Sequence record: MN850615.1
Source of the DNA: Escherichia phage kvi
Length of the DNA: 64,000 nt
Strand: one strand, 5' to 3'
Every line of letters starts with the position of its first letter. The stretch's first letter is position 1. Both the position numbers and the translations under genes were made by a program. The notes under the pieces are model-generated. The model was given only the letters and a program-made list of their open reading frames with translations, was not told the DNA's origin and ran no database searches. This document shows positions 4,855 through 48,413 of the stretch, in pieces.

Positions 4855-4882
4855 ATTATAGAGAATCTCCCTTGTATGTCAA
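4855..4882 (-). promoter_or_regulatory. sigma70-type early promoter (PeSL-like)
   Basis: TTGACA (4882-4877), 16-nt spacer, TATAAT (4860-4855); flanked by GGGAG/CTCCC inverted repeat. Confidence 0.5.
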
Positions 4883-5442
4883 CTAAAATTTAAAGATGCA
4901 AACTCCCCGTGATGAATTTTTGCATATTCATCATATGCTCTAGCGGCTTCCTCCTGAGTAGCAAACGATCCTATGTATTTTCTGTATCCGTTTATCCTTA
5001 TTTGTGCTTGCCACGGTCTTTTGCTAGATCCTTTGCGATGAGTAACACCATTATATATGCTCGTGCACCCGTCAATTTTCTTTTTATTGTACATGTTTTG
5101 TTGTTGTGTTGCCTCCCGTAAATTTGGTGGATTGTTGTTTTCTGGATTCCCGTCTATGTGGTCTATTACCTTAACCTGTGTTCCATATTCAAGAAACCAG
5201 ACAATTCTATGTACAAGATATGTAGATGTTCTCTTTTTAACCTTATTGTAAACATCTATTGCCAAATGACCGTAATTTAACTTTTTTGTTTTTACTTTAT
5301 CACCGACTCGGTAGAAATATCCCTCTGGTAGACCATTAAAAGACGGACTATTTGTTTTGTGATATAGAACACCTTCCGTGTGTTCAAATCTGCGTTTTAA
5401 TTCCTCTTGAATTTCAGTATTCCAAAATTTCGCACTTTTCAT
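4879..5442 (-). CDS. free-standing HNH homing endonuclease with C-terminal AP2-type DNA-binding domain
   Basis: HNH motif (…HRIVW…IDHIDGNPENNNPPNLR…) and AP2-like C-terminus (…RPWQAQIRINGYRKYIGSFATQEEAARAYDEY…); start codon overlaps the gp39 stop. Confidence 0.8.
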   Translation of the reverse strand: MKSAKFWNTEIQEELKRRFEHTEGVLYHKTNSPSFNGLPEGYFYRVGDKVKTKKLNYGHLAIDVYNKVKKRTSTYLVHRIVWFLEYGTQVKVIDHIDGNPENNNPPNLREATQQQNMYNKKKIDGCTSIYNGVTHRKGSSKRPWQAQIRINGYRKYIGSFATQEEAARAYDEYAKIHHGEFASLNFS

Positions 5443-11906: not shown

Positions 11907-12431
11907 TTAGTAGCCTCGTTCTTGACGGGCGAAGTTTTCAGCATTTTTCAGATAGTACAGAATAAAGAGTTCTTGAGCGTCAATACCCAGCGGGATCATC
12001 TTTGACAGAATGAAGTGGATAGCGTCCACAAATTCAAATTTCACTTCAAGCTGATCTTCCGGTGACAGTTCAGAGAATTTACGCGCTCGCGCTTCCCCGT
12101 GGTTCTTTTTCCACATTTTCCAGATTGCACTTGCATCTTTACCATTGGACATTCCACCCAGCGATGTGTAAAGCTCTCGTGTTTCGTCTGCGATAGCGTC
12201 ATCCATCCGCTGCATCCAATCCAGCATTTCACCGCAAGTCTCTAGCTTAGTTGGATTTGGGACCCAATCAAATTTTTCGGATAGTGCAACCTGCAAACCA
12301 GTTTGCATTTCGAGCATCACCTGAAACGGATCTTTACCTTCTGCAATCGCGTGATGATATGCGGCGATAGCCGCGTTAATATCTTTTTCGTTAACCAGAC
12401 CAGCACAAGAATTAAATTCTGACATATTCAC
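11907..12431 (-). CDS. MazG-like nucleoside triphosphate pyrophosphohydrolase (T4 gp56 dCTPase position)
   Basis: 174 aa; acidic EExxE-like motifs (…ETRELYTSLG…, …EDQLEVKFEFVD…); sits just downstream of primase gene 61 as T4 gene 56 does. Confidence 0.5.
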   Translation of the reverse strand: MNMSEFNSCAGLVNEKDINAAIAAYHHAIAEGKDPFQVMLEMQTGLQVALSEKFDWVPNPTKLETCGEMLDWMQRMDDAIADETRELYTSLGGMSNGKDASAIWKMWKKNHGEARARKFSELSPEDQLEVKFEFVDAIHFILSKMIPLGIDAQELFILYYLKNAENFARQERGY

Positions 12432-16877: not shown

Positions 16878-17948
16878 TTATGCTAACATATCTTCGATTT
16901 CTTTGTCAACTGCTTCGTCGCTGATCACTTGCCCCAGCTTATAATGATCGTTGATTGCTTCGTTAAACTTATCGTTTGTCAGAAGTGGTTTCCAGAACTC
17001 AATGCTATTGGTTTCTTTAGCACGGAACTTGCGTTCTTCGGTTTCCATCTCTCCGGTCTCGGTATTTAGGATTGAACGAGAATACCAGCCGTTTGACGGT
17101 TTCACTACCCAGCCTAACTCTACAGCCAATTCCAGCAACCCGGAATAAGGATCGATACCACCGCTAAATGTTACGCTAATCGGGAACTTAGATTTTTCTT
17201 TAACGGTTCGTGATTTTTCCGCATTCAGGATAAAATCATAACCAGTAATTTCGGTTCCTTCTTTCTGCTGACGACGACCAATAATGAAAACTTCATTGGC
17301 TGAATACATCGCGCCCGTACCGCCGGACATAACGGTCTTACTAAACATTTCTTGCGTTTCGTAAGTGTGGTTAATAGCGATGCACGGGATATCATTCATA
17401 GTCAGATACGGCGTAACCATACGGAACAAGCCTTTAAGTGCTTTAGCTCGCGTCATATCCTGCGCTGATTTCTCATTAATCGCGTCTTCAACTTCTTTTT
17501 TGCTTGCTAAGTTACCGATTGAGTCAATAAAGATGATCACTTTATCTTCACGGGTAATTTGCTCAAGCTGGTTCATGATTTCAAATTTCAGTTCTTCGAT
17601 GTTCTTGATTGGAACATGCACCACGCGATCAGGATCTACACCCATAGATTCAAGATAAGCGGACGTAATACCAAACTCAGAATCAAAGAACAAGCACGCC
17701 GCATCAGGATTCTGTTTCATGTATGCACTAACGCAAGTTAATCCCATGTTTGATTTAAAGTGCTTAGACGGACCAGCAAAGAAAATCAGACCAGATTGAA
17801 AGCCTTTTTTAAGATCACCTGAAAACGCAATATTCAGCATCGGGATCTTAGTGCGAGTATTTGTTTTTTCGTTAAAGAAGCTGGATTTAGACAGTACCGC
17901 AGTAGTTTTCAGGGTAGAGTTCTTTTTCAGTTTTTCCAGTACAGACAT
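16878..17948 (-). CDS. uvsX: UvsX recombinase (RecA/Rad51 family)
   Basis: 356 aa; Walker A FAGPSKHFKS, RecA-like core; T4 synteny. Confidence 0.92.
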   Translation of the reverse strand: MSVLEKLKKNSTLKTTAVLSKSSFFNEKTNTRTKIPMLNIAFSGDLKKGFQSGLIFFAGPSKHFKSNMGLTCVSAYMKQNPDAACLFFDSEFGITSAYLESMGVDPDRVVHVPIKNIEELKFEIMNQLEQITREDKVIIFIDSIGNLASKKEVEDAINEKSAQDMTRAKALKGLFRMVTPYLTMNDIPCIAINHTYETQEMFSKTVMSGGTGAMYSANEVFIIGRRQQKEGTEITGYDFILNAEKSRTVKEKSKFPISVTFSGGIDPYSGLLELAVELGWVVKPSNGWYSRSILNTETGEMETEERKFRAKETNSIEFWKPLLTNDKFNEAINDHYKLGQVISDEAVDKEIEDMLA

Positions 17949-17959
17949 TATTAATACCT

Positions 17960-18187
17960 CTATTCAGTTAATCCGTAATACTTTAATTGCTTCATTGTTA
18001 TTCGATCTTTGTAGTGCTCTTGAATTAACTTTTTCATCGCATCAACATCGATCGTCACAAATACTTCGTTGCTGTGATTTCCGTGAACTTTCTTGAAATG
18101 CTCTATGCCTTCCTCACGTTCACGTTTAATCTTTTCAATGTCTCTCATCGTATATTTCTCACGTTGGCGGGTATCGTCACCCAACAC
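17960..18187 (-). CDS. hypothetical protein (75 aa)
   Basis: only ORF between uvsX and gene 43, where T4 carries beta-gt, 42 and imm; start uncertain. Confidence 0.35.
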   Translation of the reverse strand: MLGDDTRQREKYTMRDIEKIKREREEGIEHFKKVHGNHSNEVFVTIDVDAMKKLIQEHYKDRITMKQLKYYGLTE

Positions 18188-18192
18188 CCGCC

Positions 18193-18221
18193 ATTATACA
18201 CACTTTATCTTAAATGTCAAA
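18193..18221 (-). promoter_or_regulatory. sigma70-type promoter inside the 3' end of gene 43
   Basis: TTGACA (18221-18216), 17-nt spacer, TATAAT (18198-18193); followed by a GGCGGGT…ACCCGCC hairpin. Confidence 0.45.
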
Positions 18222-19686
18222 CAGGTCAGTCAGAGAAGCAACTTTCTCATATTGCAGCTTTGCAGCCGTGGTAATGTTCTCCAGTGGTTTGACGAAAGTC
18301 TTATTAAACAACAAAGGCCAGTCTAACCACTTTAACACCTCTGATTCAATTTCTGGAGGAATACGAGTACCGGACAACCAACCAAAACAGATTTCTCCAA
18401 ACGGATTTCGATCTTTCAGCGGTACAATCATAACCTTCTCGCCCTCACGAATTGGATCTAGTCCGAATTTTCGAGCATTACGATTATAACACAATACACT
18501 CTTAACCGCATACGGACAACCCTTAATCGGATACCCGTTTGAATCGCTGTATTTCTGTAGGTTGTTTGCAGATGATACCGCAGCAACCTCAAGATAATCA
18601 AGTTTTCTAAATTCTTGCTCAAAAATACCGTAGTATTCCTGCAATGACTCTTCACCTTCCTGCAACATACGGCGAATACATTCTTTCAGTGATTTCTGAC
18701 ATGCTTTAGGGGTGGAGCTACGTTGCGTTTCCAAGCCCATGATTTTTAGCTTAGGTTCAGCAAAGCGCGTTCCTTCCATATCCCAAACATTAAGAGCATA
18801 ACGCTTTTTGCCAGTCCAGAATCCACCGATACCCGCAGATTTCAACGGAGGACCAGCAATTGCCTCACGGTCCATAAACATCAAGTGCTCATAGTTGTTC
18901 ATGTACTCGCATAACTCGCGATATCCCTTGTCGATAATAGGTTCCATTCGATGTTTACCGAAATTATCAAGGAAGTCAACAAGTTTTTCGGTATCGTCGA
19001 AACGGTCTTCCCCGCCAACCTTATCAACAACATTGTTAACCAGCACATAAACGGAGTCAGTATCACAATAACGAACATATGCAAAATCGGTTGTTCCGCA
19101 AAGCTCGTTTAAGTATTCGTTAATCTTACGCTCAATCCACTGAATTGCAAGCTGACCAAACAAGGTGATCGCACTAGCGTTACGGAGATCATAAAAACGG
19201 AATTTAGGATTCCCCAACGCACCATAAAGGGAGTTGATCAAAACTTTTCGAGAAAGCTGGTTTGTATTGCACAAGATCGACTCGTCTTTACATTCTTCCA
19301 GCAATTTCTCTAAGGCATCTTTACTTAATTCAGAAAGCATCGATTTAAACGCTTCATCAAAGTCGTGACGTACTTCAACGCTATAGCTAATGGTTCCCCC
19401 ATAAACATGATTTTCATCGTGTAGAATCGCTTTACAGAGTTCAGCATTGCGATCACATGCCAACATCATGTTTTTGTACTGCTTACGCTGATCGAATACC
19501 TTTTTAATCTCAATCGGTACGATACCGTGAATATCTTTTCTATACATCCATCCGTTAGGAGAGCAAGAATACTCATCACTCGGACGTGGTGCAGTTTTAT
19601 TGATATACTCGTGCATCGGTGCAGCATCAAAAGATCCGGCGATTGTTTCCGGCGAAATGTTAACCTGACGGATGATTGATGGATAC
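18210..19686 (-). CDS. 43: DNA polymerase gp43, exon 2 (palm/thumb, C-terminal ~490 aa)
   Basis: frame opens directly after a stop with YPSIIRQVNISPETI…HEYINKTAPRPSDEYSCSPNGWMY…; contains KILINSLYGALGN and YCDTDS polymerase motifs; no start codon of its own. Confidence 0.9.
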
Positions 19687-19826
19687 CATTATGTTCAGCG
19701 CGGTTCGCTACTCCCGCGCCCGTTCTCTTACGAACTGCTACATGTCACCATGTAGATCAGACTATATCACATTCTCATAGAGAATCCTGCCATTTCGAAT
19801 CGCTTGATTCTACTCTACTCGGTTCG

Positions 19827-20651
19827 TTACCCTTTCGATAGTCGTTGAACAACTGCATCTTTAAGCTCATTTTGATCAAACGGTGTTCTCTTACAGTACC
19901 CGCTATAATTCTTAGCAAAAGGTTTCTTCTTACCAAAGATCTCTTTTCCTGAATTATGTGATTCAACAAGAAAATTCACCATTTCATCAAATGTGAAACT
20001 TGCAAATTTAGCATAAGTTTCATTACGTTTTGACATTATTTTACTCATAACTTCCGGTCGTTTAGACGCTGAATTTTCGCGTTTCTCGCCAGTATTAAAT
20101 GATACCAACTCACCGGAAACATATCTAGGATCATCACAACTAACTCTAAACCGATTTCCTTCCTTATCCTTAACGATAACAGTATTCTTTAGCTTTTCTG
20201 CCATAGAATCAAGACCTTTTCGTATAGTGTCCTCATCAGCCCCGAAATATTTCTTTCCGCTCATATCGGTTCTGGCTTTTCCGGTCTTGTTTTCGGATAT
20301 TTTCAGTCTAACTTCCTCTCGCTTGGCTGGGTTATTGTCTCCAGCGAATGCATCTTTGGTTAACGCCTTCACTTTATCGTCATAAGATCCTCTAGAGATG
20401 AAAGCATATGCTCTCTTGCATTCACCGTTATTGAATATTAAGCACAATAACCGATGCGCCTCGACGTGGTCTTCAAACTTAAGCCTAACAAGATTCCATT
20501 TATCTAACCGATATTCAGGGAACATTGACTTCGGGCATATATGATGCACCTCGGAATATTCTTCACCCTGATACGGATTAGACACCAGTTTAATGTAGTC
20601 GTTTAATGCTTCCTCGTTATGTATTTCGTACTTTCTTAAAATGTCTTTCAT
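19827..20651 (-). CDS. intron-encoded HNH homing endonuclease
   Basis: 274 aa from ATG at 20651 (GGAGG RBS); HNH motif …EVHHICPKS…WNLVRLKFEDHVEAH…. Confidence 0.75.
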   Translation of the reverse strand: MKDILRKYEIHNEEALNDYIKLVSNPYQGEEYSEVHHICPKSMFPEYRLDKWNLVRLKFEDHVEAHRLLCLIFNNGECKRAYAFISRGSYDDKVKALTKDAFAGDNNPAKREEVRLKISENKTGKARTDMSGKKYFGADEDTIRKGLDSMAEKLKNTVIVKDKEGNRFRVSCDDPRYVSGELVSFNTGEKRENSASKRPEVMSKIMSKRNETYAKFASFTFDEMVNFLVESHNSGKEIFGKKKPFAKNYSGYCKRTPFDQNELKDAVVQRLSKG

Positions 20652-20676
20652 CTCGCGCCTCCAATGTATATCAATA

Positions 20677-20684
20677 TTTATATA
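20677..20684 (-). promoter_or_regulatory. T4 late-promoter motif TATAAATA upstream of the intron endonuclease ORF
   Basis: exact TATAAATA on minus strand ~25 nt upstream of the endonuclease ATG. Confidence 0.4.
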
Positions 20685-20800
20685 CATTATAAGACACGTT
20701 AGCTCAAAATGCAACTGCTGCTGATTGTCTCCTTAGAGATTTCCCAGCAATTAAGCAGGTTATTCGATCACTGTCACCAGTGAAAGCCCCATATCAGTTT

Positions 20801-22002
20801 AGGGAAGTAAGGTCAAAGCTCATCATCCAACGGTAAGCATTCGGCACAGGTTCTTTTACGAATGCGCCTGGATACGTCTGCTTAGGCTGTATCTTATTTT
20901 CCGGTACTACTTTACCCTCAGCTTTCAGAGATCCGAAGATAATAGCATCCCATACTTTCATCGGGTTATAAACATGGTTAAATTTAATCTTTGCATAGAA
21001 ACATAGACTATACACCAGATCGATAAATCCACGCTTTTTATCAATCGCCAGCACACGATCAACGTCGCCGATGTTATAATCGATGTAAAGTTGATGGTTG
21101 TCATCACGCAATTTCTTTAACGGACCATCATAATCAACCTTACCGATTCCTGTCTCATATTCAGCAACATAATCTAACGCATATGTTGGTTGAGTCGTAA
21201 AGCTAAATTTCTTGTATAGGTCAATATAATCAAGGCTTTCGATCCCCATGATCGTAAATGCTTCACGCTCGTTGCCAAAATCATCCTGTGAGATTCGGGA
21301 TTTAATCTTACCGCACGGGCTTAGACGGTTAGCGGTTCTACTTCCGAACTTATTACTGATACGTTTAATGATATATGGAATATCGAATGTTTCTGTGTTC
21401 CAGCCAGTGAAACCAACGGGTCGGTTTTCCTCAAAGAATCGGATGTATTCTAACAGCAATTCATCTTCTGTGTCATAGACGTTATAAACAACGCGCTCTA
21501 CAATATCAGGTCGAAGAATAGACTTGCTAGATTCCCAGATTTCACCGTTTTTTCCTTTCAAATCAAATACAAAGAAACGATCATGTACGGAATCATAATG
21601 CGTAATTGCATCGATAGGATATTTCGCTTCTTCTGGTTTAGGAAATTCTGGGGCAGTGACCTCGATATCAACCCATGCTACACGGATTTTATTTCGGTCA
21701 TATCGAATCTCTCCTTTATACGTATCAGACAGATAGGAGATGATAAAATCATCCATCCCTAGCGCCTCTTGCCCCATTTCTCCCATCTTTTTACGCCATT
21801 TGTTGGCCTCGTTCATAGAGGGGAATTTTTTAGCAATGCAAGGCTTGCCATAGATATCTTTATAATTCGTAACCATACCAGGCGCGGCATGATGAAATAA
21901 AGTTGGCGTATATTCAACGTAACGCTCTTGTTCTTGTCCAGCATCATCAATATAACGCTCGTAGATCTTATCACCTACTCGCTCACATGACAGAAAATAC
22001 AT
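20801..22002 (-). CDS. 43: DNA polymerase gp43, exon 1 (N-terminal and 3'-5' exonuclease domains, ends in motif A)
   Basis: start MYFLSCERVGDKIYERYID… at 22002 (AAGGAG RBS), matching the T4 gp43 N-terminus as recalled; exo I motif VDIEV; ORF stops one codon after …SFDLTSL. Confidence 0.9.
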
Positions 22003-23027: not shown

Positions 23028-24001
23028 TATACGAACTCCAATTCAACCATTAATTGCATTAACAAAAAGACAATGTGAATCTCTTTATCAGCCGCGTGTG
23101 CAAACATCTGATTATTTTCACCGATAATCTCGGTCAGACGTATAATCGACGCTGGCTTAACTTGAGTATACAACTCATTATAAAGTTTCTTGACAAATTG
23201 AGCGTATGTATTGGTATATCGCGGTGCAAGTTTACGCACATTAGCAAACTGTTTAGTTTTAAGTGCTTCCACCACATCGGTTACTTCGGTATTGCTACTT
23301 TCTATAACCATGCTCAATACGCCAGCATCAATTTTACCATGTTTAGCGTAGCGGTCCAAAAGTTTCATTACGCGTCGGAAGTCTGGGAAGTTCTGCTTAA
23401 CCAGTTCCGCTAATACGCGCATTTCTTCGACTGGCACACCTTCTTTATCAAGAATTGCTTTACACCGGACGATCATTTCTTTCATCATGCGAAGCTGATC
23501 ATCTTTAGTCGGAGATCCAAACGTGATTGGATCAAATCGAGATCGTAACGCTGGGATAATACCTTCTAGATCGTTTGCTGTGATAATGAATGTTACATTG
23601 TTTGAGTATGCCTCAGAGAAACTACGCAAGTGTCTTTGAGCATCAGCTAGCCCCGCTCGGTCATACTCATCGATAATAACAACTTTGCCTTTTTCTCGTT
23701 TTTCTTCATCGAGTGATACACTCTGCGCAAAGCGTGTAATCTCATCTCGGATAAAATCAATCTTACAATCTGCGCCGTTAACAAACAGATAATCAACACC
23801 CACATCTTCGCAAAGCGCCTTAGCAACGGTTGTTTTACCAGTACCCGGCGATGGGCTATGCAGAATCATTGAAGGGATTCGGCCTTGCTTAACAATCTGC
23901 GCGAAGATCTTTTTATCTGCTTCCGGCAGAATACATTCAGAAATTGATTTCGGACGGTATTTCTGTTCCCACTGAAACTCATTTTCATTAACACTCAGCA
24001 T
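23027..24001 (-). CDS. 44: clamp loader large subunit (AAA+ ATPase)
   Basis: start MLSVNENEFQWEQKYRP at 24001 (GAGGTGA RBS); Walker A SPSPGTGKTT; closely colinear with T4 gp44 as recalled. Confidence 0.95.
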   Translation of the reverse strand: MLSVNENEFQWEQKYRPKSISECILPEADKKIFAQIVKQGRIPSMILHSPSPGTGKTTVAKALCEDVGVDYLFVNGADCKIDFIRDEITRFAQSVSLDEEKREKGKVVIIDEYDRAGLADAQRHLRSFSEAYSNNVTFIITANDLEGIIPALRSRFDPITFGSPTKDDQLRMMKEMIVRCKAILDKEGVPVEEMRVLAELVKQNFPDFRRVMKLLDRYAKHGKIDAGVLSMVIESSNTEVTDVVEALKTKQFANVRKLAPRYTNTYAQFVKKLYNELYTQVKPASIIRLTEIIGENNQMFAHAADKEIHIVFLLMQLMVELEFV

Positions 24002-24028
24002 ATAATCACCTCTCACAAATTACATCAT

Positions 24029-24054
24029 TAAAACGGGGAGTATTTATACTCCCC
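24029..24054 (-). terminator. terminator-like hairpin between genes 45 and 44, embedding a TATAAATA motif
   Basis: GGGGAGUA-UAAA-UACUCCCC (8-bp stem) followed by GUUUUAAU on minus strand; the loop and stem contain TATAAATA. Confidence 0.45.
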
Positions 24055-24066
24055 ACAAACATTATA

Positions 24067-24756
24067 TTAGTCGGTGTAGCTGGAGTCAAGGTCACACGCG
24101 ATCATATAAGATACGGTTTCACTTGCCAGCCATACAGCCTTACGGCGAGTGAAGCTCAGTTTGTAATCGCCGAAGTCAGTAGCAACCAGTTTCATGTTAT
24201 CTTTACGAATAAAGAAATGGAAGTCTGCGGTTCCGGTATATTCGCCCATATCAAGACAAAACATCTCATTAGGATTATTTTTGTCAATCTCTTCCCAACC
24301 TTTGATCATCAGACGACCATCAATCGGAAGAAATTCAAGGCGATCCACTTTAAGCTGATTGCTCATTTTCATAAGCTGTTTCAGATCGTCGTTGCTCAGT
24401 TCGTAATCTACATCGCTTGCAGGTGGAGTAACTCGGCCTTTCGGTGATACGATAGCAGCAGCACTAGCACCAGGGTAATTAATTTTCAGACGATCATTAG
24501 ACACACGAATGTTTCCGGTGCGGTCATCAACCGTAATATCTGCTTCATCGCCTACCAGATTCAGAATACCCAGGAAAGAGTTAAGATCATAGATCCCGAT
24601 TTCGTGTTCCAGTTCTTGATTCAGAGTCGCTTCACCATATACAACGTTTGTCATGTTTTTGGTGATTAGGACGTTTCCTTTTTTCAGGATGATACCTGGG
24701 TTAATAGCGGAAAAGTTTTTCATGGTAGCAATGGTTTCTTTAGTCAGTTTCATCAA
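24067..24756 (-). CDS. 45: sliding clamp
   Basis: 229 aa; colinear with T4 gp45 as recalled (…ATINPGIILKKG…, …EHEIGIYDLNSFLGILNLV…). Confidence 0.95.
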   Translation of the reverse strand: MMKLTKETIATMKNFSAINPGIILKKGNVLITKNMTNVVYGEATLNQELEHEIGIYDLNSFLGILNLVGDEADITVDDRTGNIRVSNDRLKINYPGASAAAIVSPKGRVTPPASDVDYELSNDDLKQLMKMSNQLKVDRLEFLPIDGRLMIKGWEEIDKNNPNEMFCLDMGEYTGTADFHFFIRKDNMKLVATDFGDYKLSFTRRKAVWLASETVSYMIACDLDSSYTD

Positions 24757-24783
24757 ATCACCTTTATCATGTTAATCAATTAA

Positions 24784-25182
24784 TTACGGGTTTACTTCGT
24801 GCTCATTTTGAATCTTTAGCATTCTTTCGATAAATTTTTTCTCGGCTTCCTTGTCGGATGAGTGAGTATACTTCAATCCAATGTAAGCTGTCAAGTATTG
24901 TTGCAGAGCATAGACAGTAACAGGATTCTTTGCGGTCTTTTTGCCGTCGAGATATACCAGATCACCACGAACATCAAACGCAAGTTTACGACGAATCACA
25001 TCATCAACAAATTTATCTAGAACAAAATACCACTCAATACACTCTATCCCGTGACGGTAGTTCATTACATCATTATCTTTGATATAGTCAAACGGAATAT
25101 GACATAATTTACTATTTTGTAGGATGAATAGCATTTGTTCTTTTAAGCTCATACGTTTCATTCTATCACTTCCCATCAGCAA
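24784..25182 (-). CDS. RpbA-like protein (by synteny immediately upstream of gene 45)
   Basis: 132 aa ORF at the T4 rpbA position; no sequence-level confirmation. Confidence 0.45.
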   Translation of the reverse strand: MLMGSDRMKRMSLKEQMLFILQNSKLCHIPFDYIKDNDVMNYRHGIECIEWYFVLDKFVDDVIRRKLAFDVRGDLVYLDGKKTAKNPVTVYALQQYLTAYIGLKYTHSSDKEAEKKFIERMLKIQNEHEVNP

Positions 25183-25558
25183 TTGCGATTAGACGAGTTA
25201 CTACTACGCTAGCGGCTTCAATCAGCAGTTCATCAGTATCAATCTGATAACCCTTTTCGAGAATATCTTTACCTCGAATAGTTTTAGCGCCTTTAGCAAT
25301 TGAATCATCGTAATACTTGCGCATTGCCGCGATCCATTCTTTTTGCACCATATCATCAATATGCGCGTACAGTTCAAAGCGTGCTTGCTGCGGGATAACC
25401 TTCATTTTAGCTTTCTCGCTTTCCGGCATTTGTAGTACCCACGCTTTACGGATCTTGTTCATTGCTCGGTCAAATTCGAGACTGGTTTTCTTGTTCTGAA
25501 TGTCTGCTACAGTAATTTTAGCCAGGTTTGCGGAAGTAGTCATAATATTAATCTCCAA
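25166..25558 (-). CDS. hypothetical protein (130 aa; 45.1 position)
   Basis: minus-strand ORF; start may be an internal Met. Confidence 0.4.
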   Translation of the reverse strand: MEINIMTTSANLAKITVADIQNKKTSLEFDRAMNKIRKAWVLQMPESEKAKMKVIPQQARFELYAHIDDMVQKEWIAAMRKYYDDSIAKGAKTIRGKDILEKGYQIDTDELLIEAASVVVTRLIAIADGK

Positions 25559-25573
25559 AATAAAATCAGTATA

Positions 25574-25804
25574 TCACGTTCTAAAGTTTGTTGCAACCCC
25601 AGCATCAGGGTAATCAAGTTTATCAAAGTTTGGGACCAGCATAAACTCATGATGACGACAAGACAACATTTTTGTTATGTCTTCATCGCTGTATATGCTG
25701 TTTTTCATATCCCCCATACTAACTACATATTCTTCACCGGAATATAGATTGATTAAGGTATACAATTCTAACTCCGGCTGCGTTACTCTGTCAAATGTTA
25801 ACAT
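25574..25804 (-). CDS. hypothetical protein (76 aa; 45.2 position)
   Basis: minus-strand ORF overlapping the gene 46 stop by a few codons. Confidence 0.4.
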   Translation of the reverse strand: MLTFDRVTQPELELYTLINLYSGEEYVVSMGDMKNSIYSDEDITKMLSCRHHEFMLVPNFDKLDYPDAGVATNFRT

Positions 25805-27488
25805 TCATTTCAGTGAATCGCCCACGTTTAACCATCTTGAGATGACGGCTAAAATCATCAGGGTTATGGTCACGATGGCTGATAATATACACGTTATCAT
25901 CTAACTTGTCAATGATGGAATCAAGTGCTTTTACGCCTTGAACGTCCGTAGCCCCATCATAAATTTCGTCGAGTACCAACAAAGAAATGTTAGTACCAGA
26001 TACTTTACCAGCAACATCACGCCATGTAAAGAGCATCGCAAGGTCAATACGTGCTTTTTCGCCTTGACTGAACGATGTATACGAAAACGATTCACGCCCC
26101 CGTGATTTGATTGTTTCGTTAAACTCTTCATCTAGCGTAAAGATATAATCCGCTTCCATGATATCAAGATAATACGCAATCCGATCATTGAAATATGGAA
26201 TATATTTCTTGACGATAGACGCCTTAACACCGGAATCCTTCAACATTTCTGTTACAAATCCACGGTGATATTTTTCAAGAACTAGCTTTGATTTTTCATT
26301 AGTAATCTCTACCAGTTCGTGTTCCAGTTTAGCAAGTTCTTCGGAATTGTCAACCCTTTCTTTTTGTAATTCCTGAATTGCTTTCTGGATCTGTTTAGCC
26401 CGACCTACAGATGCCGTTAAATTCGCTCTCTGTGACTCTATAGCGCGTTTAATTTCCAAGACCTTAGTTTGTGCTGTCTGGAAAGAATTGGCTTTCTCTG
26501 CGTATTCTACGCGTTTCTCGTCAATAAGAGACAGTTTATGTTCGGCTTGTGCTTTTTGTTCGCGTACAGCCTGATCATTACCCTGAATGATCGGTTGTGT
26601 GCACGTAGGACAGATCCCGCCTTTCTCGTGCATATGGATAACACGGTCAAAGTTCTGGATCTGCGCACCAATCTGTGCGATAGCAGTATTAATTTTAGCC
26701 AATGCTGCGCTAGGATCTTCCGGCATAACAACAGACAATAGCTCATCGGTCAAGCGCGTTTCTTCGGCTTTAAACGCTTTAGCTGATTCTACTTCTTTCT
26801 CGTACATATTCTGCAAACGCTGTAGATTCTCGGCACTCGCCTTGCTAGCGTCTTCTATGTACTTTTTATGAGTGTTGATTTGTTGCTGAACGTGATTAGC
26901 TTTCATTTCCTGCATTTGGATATTCTGGGTAATCTCGCGCACATACGCTTTATTCAGTTTATCCATTTCGCCTAGCGTAGCAATATCAAGCAAATCCTCG
27001 ACCAGTTTACGGCGACCCGCTGCCGGAAGACTCATAAACGGAACATAACCAGCAGTTCCTAAAACAACGATCTGTTTAAAGCTGGCTAGGTTCATTCCTA
27101 TGATACCTTCAAAATATTCCTGAAAGTCTTTGGTGCTTGCGCTCTCGTCGATCTTTTGACCGTCGCGATGCACTTCGAATACTTCCGGTTTTTGACCACG
27201 TTTGATATAAAACTCTTTCCCGTCCAGTTCAAACCAGACTTCGACTAACAGTTTCTTTTTGTTGACGCTGTTAATCAATTGGCCTTTCTTGATACTACGA
27301 AACGGTTTACCGAACAACACAAAGCAAAGCGCCTCGATCATTGTTGATTTACCAGCACCGTTAACACCAGTGATTAGTGTCTTTTTGAATCCGTCTAGCT
27401 GAATCTCTACAGGTTCAGCACCCACGCTCATTATATTTTGATAGCGCAAGGTTTTAAAATTTAACTTTGCCATTAATCCACTCCGCAA
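25791..27488 (-). CDS. 46: recombination endonuclease subunit, SbcC/Rad50-like ATPase
   Basis: 565 aa; Walker A GVNGAGKST, long coiled coil with CxxC hook (CPTC), C-terminal signature/Walker B. Confidence 0.93.
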   Translation of the reverse strand: MRSGLMAKLNFKTLRYQNIMSVGAEPVEIQLDGFKKTLITGVNGAGKSTMIEALCFVLFGKPFRSIKKGQLINSVNKKKLLVEVWFELDGKEFYIKRGQKPEVFEVHRDGQKIDESASTKDFQEYFEGIIGMNLASFKQIVVLGTAGYVPFMSLPAAGRRKLVEDLLDIATLGEMDKLNKAYVREITQNIQMQEMKANHVQQQINTHKKYIEDASKASAENLQRLQNMYEKEVESAKAFKAEETRLTDELLSVVMPEDPSAALAKINTAIAQIGAQIQNFDRVIHMHEKGGICPTCTQPIIQGNDQAVREQKAQAEHKLSLIDEKRVEYAEKANSFQTAQTKVLEIKRAIESQRANLTASVGRAKQIQKAIQELQKERVDNSEELAKLEHELVEITNEKSKLVLEKYHRGFVTEMLKDSGVKASIVKKYIPYFNDRIAYYLDIMEADYIFTLDEEFNETIKSRGRESFSYTSFSQGEKARIDLAMLFTWRDVAGKVSGTNISLLVLDEIYDGATDVQGVKALDSIIDKLDDNVYIISHRDHNPDDFSRHLKMVKRGRFTEMNVNI

Positions 27489-28880: not shown

Positions 28881-29906
28881 CTAACTTTTTGCGCTATTTA
28901 CCTCGGCTAAAAGTTCATCAGAAATACGCTTGACCGCCGCAAGTTCTTCCGGTTCTAGGTTTTGTTCTTCCAGATATTCATATACCATCTGAATAGTGCT
29001 TTTAACTTCAATAACACCTGTTTCCTGTGATGCGCTACTCTCCAGTTTATGGACCACTTTTAGCTTGTGTACAACGGCCTCTAACGCGCTTTCTAACTTA
29101 GTTAACCCATTATCAGCAACCGTTGCAATAAGACGCACACTAAGCCCCTTAAAGCGTTCTACATCGATTTTATCATCTGACGGGTAAGTGATACGCACAT
29201 GATAAGTTTTGTCATTCTGGATAAACTCTTTTTTGTGTGTATCGGTATCGAATACCCAAAACCCACGCGGATCGTTTTCGTCACCCGCCGTTAGTGTGTA
29301 TGGTGTACCGATATACGTTACATTACCGCCATCGCTGATAGTATGAAAATGACCGGAAAACACTTCACGGTATTTCTTGAGGAAGTCCGCGCTATAACCT
29401 TCGGATTTTAGCCCTTTATAGAAATAGTAACCGGACAATTCCCAATGGCCTACACAATATTCGCTGAATGAGTTTTGAATAAACTCTAAAATCTCTGATT
29501 TATTGTCATCACAAAACCACGGGAACAGATCAAATGATACACCATCAAAGGTAACTGTTTCCGGTTTATCGATAACCTTAATGCAATCATACTGGCTTAA
29601 CACTTCACGCGGTGCGTTAGGCTGGATCTTGTTTCGTTTAAACATATCATGGTTCCCGACCGTGATATAACAAGTAATTCCAGCCTCTTCCAGTAATGGG
29701 ATGACCTTAGTACGGTTAAATTTCATGGTTTCATGGGTAATTGCTTTTCGGCAATCAAACCAATCCCCTGTTTGAATCCATGTCTTAATATTATGCTCTT
29801 TGGAGTATTCAACCGCCTTCTTGATGGTATCAAGAATATACTCATGCACCCACGGATCATCGCCACCGATACCAGTATGCAGATCACCTAAAAGCAAAAT
29901 TTTCAT
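28881..29906 (-). CDS. 47: recombination endonuclease subunit, Mre11/SbcD-like phosphoesterase
   Basis: 341 aa; calcineurin-like motifs (LLGDLHTG…, GNHD); partner of gp46. Confidence 0.93.
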   Translation of the reverse strand: MKILLLGDLHTGIGGDDPWVHEYILDTIKKAVEYSKEHNIKTWIQTGDWFDCRKAITHETMKFNRTKVIPLLEEAGITCYITVGNHDMFKRNKIQPNAPREVLSQYDCIKVIDKPETVTFDGVSFDLFPWFCDDNKSEILEFIQNSFSEYCVGHWELSGYYFYKGLKSEGYSADFLKKYREVFSGHFHTISDGGNVTYIGTPYTLTAGDENDPRGFWVFDTDTHKKEFIQNDKTYHVRITYPSDDKIDVERFKGLSVRLIATVADNGLTKLESALEAVVHKLKVVHKLESSASQETGVIEVKSTIQMVYEYLEEQNLEPEELAAVKRISDELLAEVNSAKS

Positions 29907-29996: not shown

Positions 29997-30284
29997 TTAC
30001 AGCATACTTAATACCGTTTGCCGTGTACTAATCCACATAGCAGAAAGCAGTTCTGGCGTGTGTGGCTGTTTGTAGATATCACGTAACTTTCCGATAGCGT
30101 AGATATACGCATCACGGTTATCATCGATGATAGCTTGTTCAGCCCACCGCTTAAGGCGTGCAATCTCTCGCGAGTTCTTACGCAAGATCTTTTCCGCTTT
30201 CTTAGCGGCTTTAGCCTCTAGTTCTGCTTGTACTTTGTCTACTTCATTCACTGCAATCTGGTCATGCTGTTCATTGCAAGTCAT
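29997..30284 (-). CDS. hypothetical protein (95 aa)
   Basis: occupies the interval where T4 has alpha-gt; no glycosyltransferase features. Confidence 0.4.
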   Translation of the reverse strand: MTCNEQHDQIAVNEVDKVQAELEAKAAKKAEKILRKNSREIARLKRWAEQAIIDDNRDAYIYAIGKLRDIYKQPHTPELLSAMWISTRQTVLSML

Positions 30285-30285
30285 A

Positions 30286-30519
30286 TTATTTTACCTCTGG
30301 GATATAATCAATTATTAAAGAAAATTCATCTTCTGATACATTATAGCTATGTGAGATTGTACCCGTAAAGACCTCAAGATCCGGTGATTTGATATTGCAC
30401 GGATCGATAATCACCGGAACGCCGCAATCTCTCAAAAATAATTTGGCGAAATACGGCACAAGGTCAGTTTCAAACTCTGCTTCTTCCAGCAAACGGGAAA
30501 TGTTAATTTTCAATCTCAT
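30286..30519 (-). CDS. hypothetical protein (77 aa)
   Basis: minus-strand ORF; overlaps the gp55 stop. Confidence 0.4.
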
Positions 30520-31036
30520 AAAATTGGTCCAAGCTAGGCAATTCCTCGGTCAATACATCTTCAACCTTTGGCGCTTTCGGTTTATTGACCGATTCCTCGT
30601 AGTTGTTGATTTTATCGTAAATGTCCTGTATGAATGCCTCATCAGCAATCTGGCACATATCAGCGTCGCGTTCGTCATATACATGATGCACAAAATATTT
30701 GTATTTTGCGGCTGTCGCTGTTCTCTCTTTTTTAATGCGCTGTACAAAAGCATTAAAGCACGCTTGCGTGATGTAAGCATGAGGATTTTTATACTTTGTC
30801 TCGTCAAAATTAATCAAACCCTTGACCGCCGCTTCGATTCCGTCGTCGATCATTTCTTCGCGCCATGTTTGACTATAACCAGAAAAGTTAAAACGACGTG
30901 ATAGATTTTTAGAGATTTGCATAATTGCTAGGCCGATTTGATCGCTCATTGGAACTTGCCGACCTTCTGCTGCAATTTGTTGTTTCCAACGGCAAATTTC
31001 TTCGTAAAGCTCTTTATTGTTTACATAATCAGACAC
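30503..31036 (-). CDS. 55: late-transcription sigma factor
   Basis: 177 aa; closely colinear with T4 gp55 as recalled (…[30 protein letters not shown]…); GTG start with GAGGG RBS. Confidence 0.95.
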
Positions 31037-31076: not shown

Positions 31077-32546
31077 CTATTCCCCATTGCCATTATACTT
31101 TCTTTGCTTAGTTATCCACACTCTAACCATCTCTACAGATTCGCCGTCAGACGGATCAAGAGTTTTTCCTTTTTTCTTCATGCGGTACTTAAATCCGTTA
31201 AATCTTGCATTCTCTTGCTCGTTAAAGTCGAACATCTTTTTAAATGATTTTCGCCCTTTACGCTCACCACATTCTAGCGGAATCATTCGGTCTGTTATTA
31301 CATTGGCATTAGGTAGAAACGTTTTTAGATAATCCACCAACGCCCAATCAGGAACATATAGATTAACATTCTCCTTGCTCTCGTTGTCTCTCAGGTTACA
31401 ACGCAAACATAATTGAAATGCTGGTTCCAGATAATCAGACACATGACGCGCTTTCAAAAACTCGTTTGTCGGGAGATCACAACTATTAGCAAGACCTTTT
31501 AAAATATCAATCTCCCATCGTTGAGGGTTAAAGCTGAACATCACAGCAACATTTTTATGATGAATGTAAGAGTTAAGACCATAAGATCCGTAAGGTATCC
31601 GCTCACCAATACCATTTGTACACGCTTCTCGGTCCCGATTCACGGTATAAATGAAGTCATCGCCACATTCATTTTTAACCATATCAACAAGACGTTCAAA
31701 GGTATTGTTTGTTTCTGACTGGTGACGCGACCATCGTTCAGAGTCCGTCATAAGGATGATATTAACTCTATCTGTATTTTTATACTCTTTGAAATATAGT
31801 CTGGATTCTAGCGCACTCGGAACAAAATCGCAATTTGCATAGTATCGTAGATACTTCCCACTATATGTATCAAAGAGATTTGCACATGCTATCGTAACCT
31901 TTTTAAAGTCTCCCCACGTACCGTGTTTGTTATCGTTCAAGAAAACAATTTTCGACCCATTCTTCCGGTGTCCTTCGTTATGTTTTACCATAACGTTGAT
32001 TTTCTTCTCTAATAACGCCTCATAAAGCCCTCTAAGAGAAGAATCGATCATATCAGTACCATCCTTCGCACTTTCTATCTTTTCTTTGATAGCGGCCTTC
32101 TCAGAGTCTTTTAGAACTAAGTTCTGTAGGCATTCCGATTCGTCGGCGATTGGTTCGCAATGCTTCGTGATAAGTTCAAGATTAGACTTAAACGGATACT
32201 CATTAAATTCAACCAGTTGAGGAACTTCATCAATGTAAAGAGCATAATCACCAAACATTTTTGAACGTTCCATATTAGATAACGCTGTATGTGTAATGAA
32301 TATCACATCAGCACCGTCTTTAACTGATTGCATTATCGACGCTTGCACTGTCTTAAGGCTTCTTAGTCTTGTGCTATCAATCAAGACAGCACGACCGCCC
32401 ATTCTTTTAAACTTATTGTAAGATTGTTCACTTAAAACACGAGATGGCGAAGCAATAACCGCTTTTTCTTTTGTCTCTAGGACGTGGGAAAGTATAGCAT
32501 CAGTTTTCCCCGCCGCTGGCAATGCGATTAATGTTTCAATCTTCAT
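31077..32546 (-). CDS. P-loop NTPase of unknown function (Walker A/B), possible helicase-like ATPase
   Basis: 489 aa; Walker A LPAAGKTDA, Walker B ALYIDEV; no counterpart I recognise at this T4 position. Confidence 0.5.
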   Translation of the reverse strand: MKIETLIALPAAGKTDAILSHVLETKEKAVIASPSRVLSEQSYNKFKRMGGRAVLIDSTRLRSLKTVQASIMQSVKDGADVIFITHTALSNMERSKMFGDYALYIDEVPQLVEFNEYPFKSNLELITKHCEPIADESECLQNLVLKDSEKAAIKEKIESAKDGTDMIDSSLRGLYEALLEKKINVMVKHNEGHRKNGSKIVFLNDNKHGTWGDFKKVTIACANLFDTYSGKYLRYYANCDFVPSALESRLYFKEYKNTDRVNIILMTDSERWSRHQSETNNTFERLVDMVKNECGDDFIYTVNRDREACTNGIGERIPYGSYGLNSYIHHKNVAVMFSFNPQRWEIDILKGLANSCDLPTNEFLKARHVSDYLEPAFQLCLRCNLRDNESKENVNLYVPDWALVDYLKTFLPNANVITDRMIPLECGERKGRKSFKKMFDFNEQENARFNGFKYRMKKKGKTLDPSDGESVEMVRVWITKQRKYNGNGE

Positions 32547-33272: not shown

Positions 33273-33769
33273 TTCTCAGCCTTTAATCTTTCTAGTTCTT
33301 CTTCCAGTTCCTTGATCCGTTGGTCACGTTCAAAGTCACGCTGTAACTTAGTGGCGAATACTCGTTTAAACTGATTGTAATCATCGATTTTAAACACTTC
33401 TTCTTCGCCATAGCGACGCACAGAAACTTCGTAGTTATTGAAGAATTGTTGCATCATTGCTTCGGATGATAGCTCTGCTGATACCACTTTAAAATATTGA
33501 TCTTCTGTAGGCGAAAACCAATTACAAGCATAAAGATAAACCTTTTCATTGTCTGGACACTGGTAAGCCTTACCATCGATTTCAATCACAGAAACATACT
33601 CAGGTATACTAGATGAATCAATAGCTAAGACTTTAAACGCACGGTCCCCGATAAACTCGGAGATCACACGATTCGCATCACTGGTTGCAAATGCTTTACG
33701 CGCTTGTTCGTTTTTCCACTGATAGGTCATACCAACAACAAACATATTACCAACCTCGCTCTTTACCAA
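33269..33769 (-). CDS. hypothetical protein (166 aa), paralogue family 1
   Basis: N-terminal G(K/M)TY(T/Q)WK motif shared with the three following ORFs. Confidence 0.45.
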   Translation of the reverse strand: MVKSEVGNMFVVGMTYQWKNEQARKAFATSDANRVISEFIGDRAFKVLAIDSSSIPEYVSVIEIDGKAYQCPDNEKVYLYACNWFSPTEDQYFKVVSAELSSEAMMQQFFNNYEVSVRRYGEEEVFKIDDYNQFKRVFATKLQRDFERDQRIKELEEELERLKAEK

Positions 33770-39955: not shown

Positions 39956-39983
39956 ATTATAGCATACTCCCTTCGCATGTCAA
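39956..39983 (-). promoter_or_regulatory. sigma70-type early promoter (PeSL)
   Basis: TTGACA (39983-39978), 16-nt spacer, TATAAT (39961-39956); GGGAGTA…TACTCCC inverted repeat over the -10. Confidence 0.55.
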
Positions 39984-41189: not shown

Positions 41190-41218
41190 ATCTTACTACT
41201 CCCGTTTCATCATGTCAA
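41190..41218 (-). promoter_or_regulatory. sigma70-type early promoter (PeSL)
   Basis: TTGACA (41218-41213), 17-nt spacer, TAAGAT (41195-41190); GGGAGTA…TACTCCC inverted repeat. Confidence 0.5.
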
Positions 41219-42629: not shown

Positions 42630-42923
42630 TTAACCATTAATCTTGTTTTTGACTACAAAGGATCTGAACTCATCAAAACCACCTATATAATCACCATTAT
42701 AGAAAATCTGCGGCATGGTGGCAATAACTTCTACCCCTGCGCGATCCTGAATGTCGGCAATGATAGAATCAATCTTTACCGGACGACCGTTTTCGTCTAC
42801 ACCATCATTAACCGGAATGTAGATGTAAGGGATCTTACGCGATTCACAAAGGCGCTTTGCATTCTGGCAATACTTACAGTTGTAACCTTCAAAACCAAAA
42901 ATTTCTACCATATTATACCTCAA
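42630..42923 (-). CDS. nrdC: thioredoxin/glutaredoxin NrdC
   Basis: CKYCQNAKRL active-site region and …MPQIF…IGGFDEF… tail match T4 NrdC as recalled. Confidence 0.8.
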   Translation of the reverse strand: MRYNMVEIFGFEGYNCKYCQNAKRLCESRKIPYIYIPVNDGVDENGRPVKIDSIIADIQDRAGVEVIATMPQIFYNGDYIGGFDEFRSFVVKNKING

Positions 42924-43732
42924 TCTACGTTAGTTACATAAACTTCTTGCGTATCAGAAGACTTGCCACCTGAACGATCTAGGCAATAGGTCTTATTCAA
43001 CAGGACGCAGTTTAGATCATTCCGCTTGATAAAGTCAAGAAGATGATCATTTACCTTTCCCTTATGATGCGTGACATTACTGATACCAAACTGAAAACCA
43101 CGCGCCATAATAGATTCTACCCACTGATAGAATTTAATCTCTTCCTCGTCACTCCAGAACTTATTATATTCCGCAGAAGTGATAAGATACGGCGGGTCCA
43201 AATAAACGAAATCACCTGGCAAGATCTCGATCTCGTCATAGCGACCAGACGTAAAACTGATTCGACCGTCTTTGTTTTCTTCCTTAAAATTCAGGACACG
43301 CTCTACCGCGTTTTCGTTAAAAGTCCGGCGACCAAAATTAGCATTAAATTCGCCCTTCCGGTTATGGCGGTTAATGTTGCTAAAACTATGCTGAATCAAC
43401 ACAAACAGCGATAGCGGATCTGGATTCTCGTTATACTTCTTACGGAATGTCATGTAAGCGTCTTTATCTTCGCGAGACAAACCATTTTCGGCAATAATCC
43501 GCTTGATCGTAGAAACCGGATCAGGACACTCGTCAATGGCCTTGTAAGCGTCAATTAATTGGTGATCATAGTCATTAGCCAGCACATCCCCTTCGACGTA
43601 CAGAGACACGCTCAAGCCGCCACAAAAGGCATCAACAAAGCGGTTATAGTGCTTAGGGAAATACTTACTAACACCTGGTAATAGCTTTTCCTTATTGCCA
43701 GTATAGGGAATTAAACCTAATGCTTTCTTCAT
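42920..43732 (-). CDS. dam: DNA adenine methyltransferase (Dam, N6-adenine)
   Basis: 270 aa; …NRFVD.FCGGLSVSL… SAM-binding region and DPPY catalytic motif; colinear with T4 Dam as recalled. Confidence 0.93.
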   Translation of the reverse strand: MKKALGLIPYTGNKEKLLPGVSKYFPKHYNRFVDAFCGGLSVSLYVEGDVLANDYDHQLIDAYKAIDECPDPVSTIKRIIAENGLSREDKDAYMTFRKKYNENPDPLSLFVLIQHSFSNINRHNRKGEFNANFGRRTFNENAVERVLNFKEENKDGRISFTSGRYDEIEILPGDFVYLDPPYLITSAEYNKFWSDEEEIKFYQWVESIMARGFQFGISNVTHHKGKVNDHLLDFIKRNDLNCVLLNKTYCLDRSGGKSSDTQEVYVTNVD

Positions 43733-48106: not shown

Positions 48107-48328
48107 TTAAATGATCTCTGCTTCACCGTTAAGGAAGAAAGACCATGTTTTGTTAGGATAACGAAGCGCCCACGATTCAGCAGTTTTAACACCAGCTTCG
48201 AACAATTGACGGCTGGTTACTTTAGCCATACCATCTTCGATGGCAACGTTTTCAATAATCATCGGGTACTTAGCGCCACGCATGAAACCGAAGCCAGCGG
48301 AAGATTTGATAATTTTAACAGTTGCCAT
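48107..48328 (-). CDS. hypothetical protein (73 aa)
   Basis: ATG at 48328 preceded by the conserved leader and GGAGAAUCAAAA RBS. Confidence 0.4.
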   Translation of the reverse strand: MATVKIIKSSAGFGFMRGAKYPMIIENVAIEDGMAKVTSRQLFEAGVKTAESWALRYPNKTWSFFLNGEAEII

Positions 48329-48366
48329 TTTTGATTCTCCTAGAAAGTGTCGTGTTTCGATGGGTG

Positions 48367-48395
48367 TATTATGCAATAACACCGGATCGCTGTCA
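48367..48395 (-). promoter_or_regulatory. sigma70-type promoter (PeSL)
   Basis: TTGACA (48395-48390), 17-nt spacer, CATAAT (48372-48367). Confidence 0.5.
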
Positions 48396-48413
48396 ACACT
48401 TTCTAAGAAAAAT

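Follow-up and report, generated by a model that had tools for sequence, protein, structure and literature searches.

The phage lineage from which this DNA comes, that of the Krischviruses, very probably replicates with ordinary dCTP and does so without a dCMP hydroxymethylase or DNA glucosyltransferases. An initial annotation, made from the letters of the window alone (the window being the whole stretch of 64 kb analyzed here), had described a probable unmodified-cytosine phage. This description is supported by three lines of evidence: the window and three relatives have no homologue of gp42, alpha-gt or beta-gt, restriction sites have been purged from the DNA, and the DNA chemistry of the group has been published. 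The cytosine inference is correct for the RB49 group, and it is already in print. Gene content, synteny and site depletion were computed in this work, and the DNA chemistry of RB49 and TB34 was taken from the literature.

Results

The window and its relatives

Megablast searches with 12 kb around the gap between uvsX and gene 43 and with the last 25 kb of the window returned 63–69 phage records, almost all of them at 95–99% identity, among them RB49, ECD7 and entries labelled Krischvirus. Three complete genomes were used for comparison: RB49 (164,018 bp), PTE-Eco09 (167,554 bp) and SAP (165,332 bp). PTE-Eco09 aligned across almost all 64 kb with 98–99.4% nucleotide identity, and RB49 and SAP aligned over nearly the full length with 95.5–99% and 95–99% identity, respectively. 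The alignments to all three were broken solely at small insertions. All long ORFs of the window lie on the minus strand, and its G+C content is about 40%. ARAGORN found 0 tRNA genes in the window, and Krischvirus phages have been described as carrying no tRNA genes (Korf et al. 2019, PMC6563267). Judged by these alignments, the window spans the early/replication arm of a "pseudo-T-even" (Krischvirus) phage of the RB49 type, reaching from rIIB to gene 1. The features discussed below are collected in Table 1.

Table 1. Positions in the window of the features discussed in the text and the evidence for each.
Feature	Position	Strand	Evidence
gp56 homologue, dCTPase/dUTPase-type all-alpha NTP pyrophosphatase	11907..12425	-	49% identical to T4 gp56, E 2e-60
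uvsX recombinase	16878..17948	-	63% identical to T4 UvsX, E 3e-151 (tblastn)
uvsX-gene 43 intergenic gap, 261 bp	17949..18209	-	bounded by uvsX (16878..17948) and the end of gene 43 (18210)
62-aa early ORF	17960..18148	-	phrog_12120 (E 7e-42); 61/62 identical to RB49p025
12-bp stem-loop	18165..18193	-	dG -22.7 kcal/mol, z -4.7, 0/200 shuffles as stable
sigma-70 early promoter TTGACA-16-TATAAT	18193..18220	-	consensus match 12/12
gene 43 (DNA polymerase) exon 2	18210..19686	-	RB49 gene 43 alignment, splice model
probable group I intron, 1114 nt	19687..20800	-	RF00028 match below the gathering score, U/G boundaries, restored ORF
HNH homing-endonuclease ORF, 295 aa	19827..20714	-	phrog_12434, full length, E 4e-131
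gene 43 (DNA polymerase) exon 1	20801..22002	-	RB49 gene 43 alignment, splice model
gene 47	28881..29906	-	landmark, from RB49 gene tables
T4 a-gt.4 homologue (DUF2654)	29997..30284	-	tblastn E 1e-12; PF10849 E 1e-22
T4 a-gt.5 homologue (DUF5491)	30286..30519	-	tblastn E 6e-8; Pfam
gene 55, late sigma factor	30503..31036	-	landmark, from RB49 gene tables
Dam-family N6-adenine DNA methyltransferase	42920..43732	-	46% identical to T4 Dam; PF02086 E 2e-30

The two T4 positions of the modification genes

In T4, the interval between uvsX and gene 43 (23562–27196) measures 3.6 kb and holds segA, b-gt, 42, imm and imm.1. The initial annotation had found in the corresponding gap of the window one small ORF and no beta-gt, 42 or imm, and tblastn agrees: T4 b-gt, gp42, imm and imm.1 had no match within the gap. 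The ORF can be read as 75 aa from a GTG (17960..18187) or as 62 aa from an ATG at 18148. Because the product of the 62-aa form is basic and hydrophilic, it is not the membrane protein Imm, and a Pfam scan of it returned no domain. A remnant of imm, imm.1, b-gt or 42 was rejected since tblastn showed no similarity to any of them. The best T4 match of this ORF was a-gt.2, with 37% identity over 30 aa in pairwise BLASTP. At phmmer E 0.08, in a search of the T4 ORFs from the 149 kb of the genome on either side of 100–120 kb, this match was too weak to support homology.

On the coding strand, the gap carries an early promoter, a stem-loop directly after the -10 box and then the 62-aa ORF. The -35 box of this promoter overlaps the last codons of gene 43, and the RB49 record has a "hypothetical early promoter" annotated at the equivalent place. 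In RB49 and phi1, gene 43 was reported to have a PeSL on each side (Arbiol 2010, PMC2839356), and the promoter and stem-loop at 18165–18220 form a cassette of the PeSL type.

The T4 interval between genes 47 and 55 has, in addition to what is found in the window, 47.1, a-gt, mobB, a-gt.2 and a-gt.3. The two small ORFs present there in the window had been said to show no glycosyltransferase features, and they proved to be homologues of a-gt.4 and a-gt.5. The layout of both T4 positions is reproduced in RB49, PTE-Eco09 and SAP. By this comparison, the gene absences are structural, reproducible across relatives and not a matter of chance.

Genes for hydroxymethylation, glucosylation and attack on cytosine DNA

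We searched T4 proteins by tblastn against the window and the complete RB49, PTE-Eco09 and SAP genomes. With gp42, a-gt, b-gt, alc, denB, ndd, arn, imm and imm.1 as queries, nothing was found below E 0.02 in the window or in the three genomes, with the one exception of the expected weak fold match between gp42 and Td (E 0.006 in RB49, PTE-Eco09 and SAP). The best match of gp42 in the window had an E of 1.1, and with a-gt and b-gt of T4 the window and its three complete relatives gave nothing below E 0.2. No significant tblastn match was obtained for ipI, ipII and ipIII in the genomes searched. For motA, asiA and imm.1, all matches in the window and RB49 had an E above 1, and searches of PTE-Eco09 and SAP at cut-offs of 1 and 0.1 returned none.

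When gp42 and RB49 Td were compared by phmmer with all window ORFs of at least 40 aa, the best E was 0.3. Together with the tblastn value for gp42, this bears out the earlier statement that the window contains no ORF with a thymidylate-synthase fold. Among the RB49 ORFs of at least 40 aa, phmmer found exactly one TS-fold gene, Td; td is the only such gene in RB49, PTE-Eco09 and SAP, and it is located outside the window. A Pfam scan of 36 window ORFs, which took in the unassigned ORFs of at least 125 aa, a number of known genes and, from the two T4 positions, the three small ORFs, returned no glycosyltransferase, TS-fold, TET/JBP or C5-methyltransferase domain.

Homologues of gene 42 or of the glucosyltransferases elsewhere in the genome would have spoken against the initial annotation, and tblastn found none in the window or in the three complete relatives. 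Because the window represents 64 kb of roughly 165 kb, absence from the whole genome rests on these close relatives. In Petrov 2010 (Table 4, PMC2993671), the phages credited with gene 42, denB and alc are all of other types, and the table of a 2025 survey gives Krischvirus as positive for dCTPase and denA and as negative for hmC, denB, ndd and alc (PMC12115623).

Depletion of restriction sites

The expected numbers of hexamers and 4-mers were calculated with maximal-order Markov estimates. A third-order Markov simulation reproduces 4-mers by construction, and 4-mers were judged by the maximal-order estimates only. The results showed that 26 of the 64 six-base palindromes, including those of EcoRI, HindIII and BamHI, are absent from the window. 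Sixteen of these 26 were expected at least 5 times, whereas only 3 of 1831 non-palindromic hexamers are absent at such an expectation. Palindromes had a mean z of -2.09 and non-palindromes one of 0.03 (Mann-Whitney p = 3e-22), and the ratio of observed to expected sites was 0.59 for palindromes containing C/G and 0.89 for those made of A/T only. The sites not found at all include BspEI TCCGGA (27.6 expected), EcoRI GAATTC (16.7), ACCGGT (14.5), HindIII AAGCTT (14.4) and BamHI GGATCC (13.2).

The depletion extends over whole genomes, in which 22 (RB49), 21 (PTE-Eco09) and 24 (SAP) of the 64 palindromes are absent and 19–20 six-base palindromes with an expectation of at least 5 are missing; the overall observed/expected ratio for palindromes in SAP is 0.69. 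In T4 (99 kb), 0 palindromes with an expectation of at least 5 are absent, and the overall ratio is 0.93. Sites of type I enzymes and CCWGG are affected as well. Neither the window (about 6 expected) nor the RB49 genome (15 ± 3 expected in third-order Markov simulations) contains an EcoKI site, and CCWGG occurs 28 times in the window against 58 expected. CCGG, which HpaII and MspI recognise, occurs 122 times in the window. By the third-order Markov model, RB49 has 8 EcoBI sites against 28, 1 EcoAI site against 9 and 69 CCWGG sites against 183. The EcoKI and CCWGG counts of T4 are at expectation. Because type II enzymes cannot select on hypermodified sites, the purge suggests that the cytosines have long been exposed, and it points to ordinary cytosine. 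Our literature search found no paper describing restriction-site avoidance for RB49 or Krischvirus.

Dam and adenine methylation

The initial annotation had placed a Dam gene at 42920–43732, and it was right: apart from its identity to T4 Dam, the protein scores 152 bits with TIGR00571, against a cut-off of 115. GATC occurs 367 times in the window, with 352 expected, compared with 108 against 334 in T4. The BclI site TGATCA, which Dam can block, is spared (37 against 34 expected), whereas Dam-insensitive sites are low, with BamHI missing as given above and PvuI found 4 times against 15.5. This pattern of BclI spared and BamHI and PvuI depleted fits an active Dam. That GATC is not depleted, together with the identity to T4 Dam, leads us to infer that the homologue is specific for GATC.

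It is thus likely that the DNA is not free of every modification. It would carry phage-directed N6-methyladenine at GATC, and possibly marks from further amino-methyltransferases encoded elsewhere, which is a qualification of the ordinary-cytosine reading rather than a true rival to it. The Dam-family gene, the GATC count at expectation while many other palindromes are purged, and the contrast between BclI and the BamHI and PvuI sites all favor such methylation, although BglII AGATCT, which is Dam-insensitive too, is only mildly depleted (23 against 33). As for further enzymes, RB49p143 has MTS, Eco57I and N6_Mtase-type domains. Among the "DNA methyltransferases" of RB49, none was recognised as being of the C5-cytosine type: RB49p143 is of the amino-methyltransferase type and RB49p189 has no Pfam/NCBIfam match. 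No C5-cytosine methyltransferase domain was found by Pfam/NCBIfam in the window ORFs scanned or in the RB49 methyltransferases. In the phrase "unmodified-cytosine phage", therefore, the word cytosine stands, but DNA that is wholly unmodified is not to be expected from a phage that encodes a Dam methylase.

Retained enzymes of nucleotide metabolism

The gp56 homologue starts at an ATG at 12425 or at a GTG at 12431. It scores 24.8 bits with PF08761 (dUTPase_2), just over the cut-off of 22.9, and matches phrog_173, "NTP pyrophosphohydrolase", at E 5e-37. A PDB sequence search gave nothing at E up to 1, NCBIfam gave no match, and the MazG family itself was not matched in Pfam. Of the earlier name, gp56-like MazG pyrophosphohydrolase (11907–12431), the relation to gp56 holds and membership of the MazG family in the strict Pfam sense does not. 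We take the dUTPase_2/gp56 type to be grouped with MazG at the level of the all-alpha NTP pyrophosphohydrolase superfamily. The gene tables of RB49, PTE-Eco09 and SAP annotate no other enzyme as a dUTPase, which suggests that the gp56 homologue may fill this role.

Other enzymes are also retained, and their identities to the T4 proteins by tblastn are 49% for DenA, 56% for Cd, 34–36% for the dNMP kinase gp1 and 53% for Tk. Gene 56 and denA are present in almost all T4 relatives, whether or not these have gene 42 (Petrov 2010, Table 4, PMC2993671). Because gp56 and gp1 are found in T4 relatives without gene 42, they are not diagnostic of hmC, and the gp56 and Dam homologues are no markers of hmC.

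Td of the Krischviruses is a long protein of 410 aa, about 130 aa of which form an insertion. It scores 283 bits with TIGR03284 and matches PF00303 at E 1e-84, the dUMP-specifying Asn is conserved in its motif PFNVASY, and its gene adjoins frd. The possibility that Td is a disguised hydroxymethylase was rejected because the protein is above the thymidylate-synthase equivalog cut-off, keeps the dUMP Asn and has frd as its neighbor.

A probable intron in gene 43 and other mobile elements

Gene 43 contains an insert that is probably a group I intron and carries an HNH homing-endonuclease ORF. Nucleotides 1–1191 of RB49 gene 43 align to 22002..20812 of the window and nucleotides 1203–2679 to 19686..18210. 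When 20801 (U) is joined to 19686, with the intron-terminal G at 19687, the predicted protein is identical to RB49 gp43 at 893 of 893 residues. In a search of 1.6 kb, RF00028 matched with typical core segments at 30.6 bits (E 1.7e-5), below its gathering score of 50, and at the gathering threshold Rfam reported no family in the whole window. The insertion sits inside the polymerase motif DLTSLYPSI. Such an intron has been proposed in phage JSE, with a truncated endonuclease gene (Petrov 2010, PMC2993671). The window and PTE-Eco09 share the intron, which in the window has a full-length HNH gene; RB49 and SAP lack it.

Elsewhere in the window, at 4879..5442, there is a gene for an HNH-AP2 endonuclease with no counterpart at that site in RB49, PTE-Eco09 or SAP. 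It is 42% identical to RB49p040, the HNH-AP2 gene that lies between 47 and a-gt.4 in RB49 and is missing from that place in the window.

Discussion

What has been published on the DNA of this group mostly agrees with the computed results. RB49 DNA is cut by HpaII and NheI, HPLC/MS detected no modified nucleoside in the Krischvirus TB34 (PMC13390438), and Krischvirus DNA has been described as having cytosine and no hmC (Korf et al. 2019, PMC6563267). The ordinary-dCTP reading has to contend, however, with a report by Kelly and co-workers (AEM 2026) that SAP DNA contains, by HPLC/MS, about 1/3 5-hmdC and about 2/3 alpha-gentiobiosyl-methyl-dC, and that SAP shows sensitivity to BrxU, a type IV enzyme (PMC13390438). 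Taken at face value, these data would mean that Krischviruses, maybe the phage of the window too, hypermodify cytosine by an unrecognised pathway that works without a TS-fold enzyme. Many window ORFs have no Pfam match and about 40% have no assigned function, which leaves space for such an enzyme, but we consider this very improbable. SAP is 99.96% identical to the unmodified TB34, and the authors themselves found no pathway and obtained no lead from SNP analysis (PMC13390438). If the report is not an artefact, SAP and TB34 imply an on/off switch made of few differences (PMC13390438). The chance that Krischviruses make hmC-derived bases with neither a TS-fold enzyme nor a recognisable glycosyltransferase, switched by a few nucleotide differences, seems to us slimmer still. 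The SAP record has no homologue of gp42, alpha-gt or beta-gt and shows the same restriction-site purge as the window, a purge that would not persist with fully hypermodified cytosines, and the cutting of RB49 DNA by HpaII and NheI is likewise against such a pathway. Furthermore, SAP shares its modification profile with seven Tequatrovirus phages of its collection (PMC13390438), which hints at mixed or mislabelled DNA, and a mixed or mislabelled preparation would be the simplest explanation of the report.

The genes for the hydroxymethylase and the glucosyltransferases could also be present but moved outside the 64-kb window. About 100 kb of the genome lie beyond it, and T4-type genomes are mosaic, with hyperplastic regions in which genes are shuffled through PeSL cassettes (PMC2839356). 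Even so, relocation appears to us the most improbable of the explanations considered and barely credible, because RB49, PTE-Eco09 and SAP are without gp42, a-gt and b-gt and have Td as their sole TS-fold gene. The genus-level survey (PMC12115623) and Petrov 2010 Table 4 (PMC2993671) agree on the absence, and the purge of restriction sites argues for cytosines that have long been exposed. Within the ordinary-dCTP reading itself, the gp56 homologue is the awkward element, since a dCTPase as active as T4 gp56 would not fit easily with a C content of 20% in the DNA.

The gene set found is that of a T4-type replisome with its dNTP supply, and it includes neither the hydroxymethylation/glucosylation branch nor weapons against cytosine DNA. 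All that remains at the two T4 positions is a promoter/stem-loop cassette and small ORFs that are conserved. Also lacking are Alc, endonuclease IV (denB), Ndd, Arn and IPI, which make sense only in a phage with cytosine-free DNA. The gp56 homologue, Cd, Td, Frd, Tk, gp1 and Nrd would together form an ordinary network of dNTP supply, in which the gp56 homologue may act mainly as the phage dUTPase, perhaps with a moderate dCTP/dCDPase activity. dUMP and dCMP would then be channelled by way of Cd and Td (with Frd) towards dTTP for a genome of 60% A+T, with C not excluded from the DNA. Defence against restriction would rest on the removal of type II palindromes, of EcoKI, EcoBI and EcoAI sites and of CCWGG, not on base hypermodification, while GATC would be protected by the phage Dam methylase.

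These results have some practical meaning. It is already known for this group that ordinary enzymes suffice to cut and clone the DNA of RB49-type phages, that type I–III restriction can act on it and that type IV enzymes do not. The lack of cytosine-DNA destruction through denB and alc in RB49-type phages has been linked to plasmid transduction (PMC12115623), which is a safety point for phage therapy. In T4-like phages, the purge signature makes it possible to test for exposed cytosines from sequence alone, and it argues against the claim that the Krischvirus SAP is fully hypermodified. The retained gp56 homologue offers a natural case in which to study the role of the enzyme when cytosine stays in the DNA.

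Compared with T4, the window has the same replication backbone: 39, dexA, dda, 56, 61, 41, 40, uvsX, 43, regA, 62, 44, 45, 46, 47, 55 and nrd. The hmC system of T4 consists of gp42, alpha-gt and beta-gt, and the window is without all three; the accessory functions of T4 against cytosine DNA (Alc, DenB, Ndd, Arn and IPI) are also all absent. Restriction sites are not purged in T4, whereas in the window they are. T4 "dC" multiple mutants (42-, 56-, denB-, alc-) make cytosine DNA. In these mutants cytosine DNA requires that denB and alc be absent, which is the natural gene content in the window. The mutants also need gene 56 to be inactivated, whereas Krischviruses keep an intact gp56 homologue, and by this analogy the intact protein would have a different or weaker activity on dCTP.

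Phages with unmodified DNA that avoid restriction sites (e.g. PMC6286503) show, as here, a palindrome-specific depletion that includes type I and type II sequences; compared with them, the depletion found here is unusually complete for a genome of 165 kb. The closest likeness is to the Krischvirus phages RB49, phi1, JSE, ECD7 and PTE-Eco09, which share their gene order with the window at 95–99% nucleotide identity. Neither the RB49-type phages nor the window have tRNA genes, and both lack gene 42, a-gt, b-gt, alc, denB, ndd, motA and asiA; the relatives differ from the window in mobile-element content only. As in the window, RB49-type phages carry the 62-aa ORF with a PeSL between uvsX and 43 and the a-gt.4/a-gt.5 pair between 47 and 55.

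Homing endonuclease genes and a probable intron in gene 43

We analyzed gene 43, which encodes DNA polymerase and is interrupted by an insert of 1114 nt lying within the motif DLTSLYPSI. The insert matched Rfam at a sub-threshold 30.6 bits, its ends were the canonical U and G, and its removal in silico gave a protein identical to RB49 gp43 (893/893), suggesting that it is probably a group I intron. The HNH homing endonuclease ORF inside it is apparently full-length. RB49 and SAP lack the insert, whereas in PTE-Eco09 the matching region is annotated as two polymerase genes and small ORFs.

An HNH_3 + AP2 gene was also found as an insertion separating gene 39 from the rIIA-proximal small ORFs, and it was missing at that site in RB49, PTE-Eco09 and SAP. 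Its product is 42% identical to that of RB49p040, an HNH-AP2 gene that lies between 47 and a-gt.4 in RB49 but is absent from that position in the window. The window also lacks the two homing endonuclease genes that border primase gene 61 in SAP, and this difference accounts for the interruptions in its alignment with SAP at 12419-12431 and 13468 (window coordinates).

Locations of the features analyzed (window coordinates unless a segment is named)
Feature	Location	Strand	Basis
HNH_3 + AP2 homing endonuclease gene, 187 aa	4879-5442	minus	
62-aa ORF, uvsX-43 interval	17960-18148		
Gene 43 (DNA polymerase), interrupted	18210-22002	minus	
Probable group I intron in gene 43	19687-20800	minus	Rfam, boundaries and splice product
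HNH homing endonuclease ORF, 295 aa, in the intron	19827..20714	minus	
Conserved 489-aa protein (RB49p044, phrog_2467) adjoining gene 55	31077-32546	minus	
Three ORFs with common PHROG families	33747-34571, 39980-41158, 41215-41799	minus	
Tk.4 homologue, macro-domain protein	51944-52399	minus	
Vs.6 homologue, glycyl-radical domain of GrcA 'spare part' type	55521-55937	minus	
RB49 td, outside the window	RB49 segment L006:6870-8102		
Homing endonuclease genes on either side of SAP gene 61	SAP segment L014:46685-47248 and 48302-48865		

Other ORFs and thymidylate synthase

The 62-aa ORF weakly resembles T4 a-gt.2 (T4 segment L003:38731-38922), with 37% identity over 30 aa and a phmmer E value of 0.08 against T4 ORFs from 149 kb of the T4 genome. 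This resemblance could reflect a relocated small gene or be due to chance.

The only match of the RB49p044 homologue, which has no T4 counterpart at the same position, was a weak N-terminal one to a DEAD/DEAH helicase-like domain (27.3 bits). Three further ORFs, all assigned to phrog_622, phrog_5347 and 'goF mRNA metabolism modulator' families, appear to be paralogues that contain repeated domains; Pfam gave nothing above cut-off in any of them. The Tk.4 homologue also matched the model for the antitoxin DarG (ADP-ribosyl glycohydrolase), but scored below threshold.

The thymidylate synthase of Krischvirus comprises 410 aa, and an insertion of ~130 aa splits the two halves of its TS domain; the Pfam match to RB49 Td falls into two parts, of which the second covers residues 254-410.

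GATC frequency

GATC occurs at expectation in Krischvirus sequences (367 observed vs 352 expected in the whole window). In T4 (record segments L003 and L007), by contrast, it is strongly depleted (108 vs 334 expected), although T4 and Krischvirus alike encode Dam.
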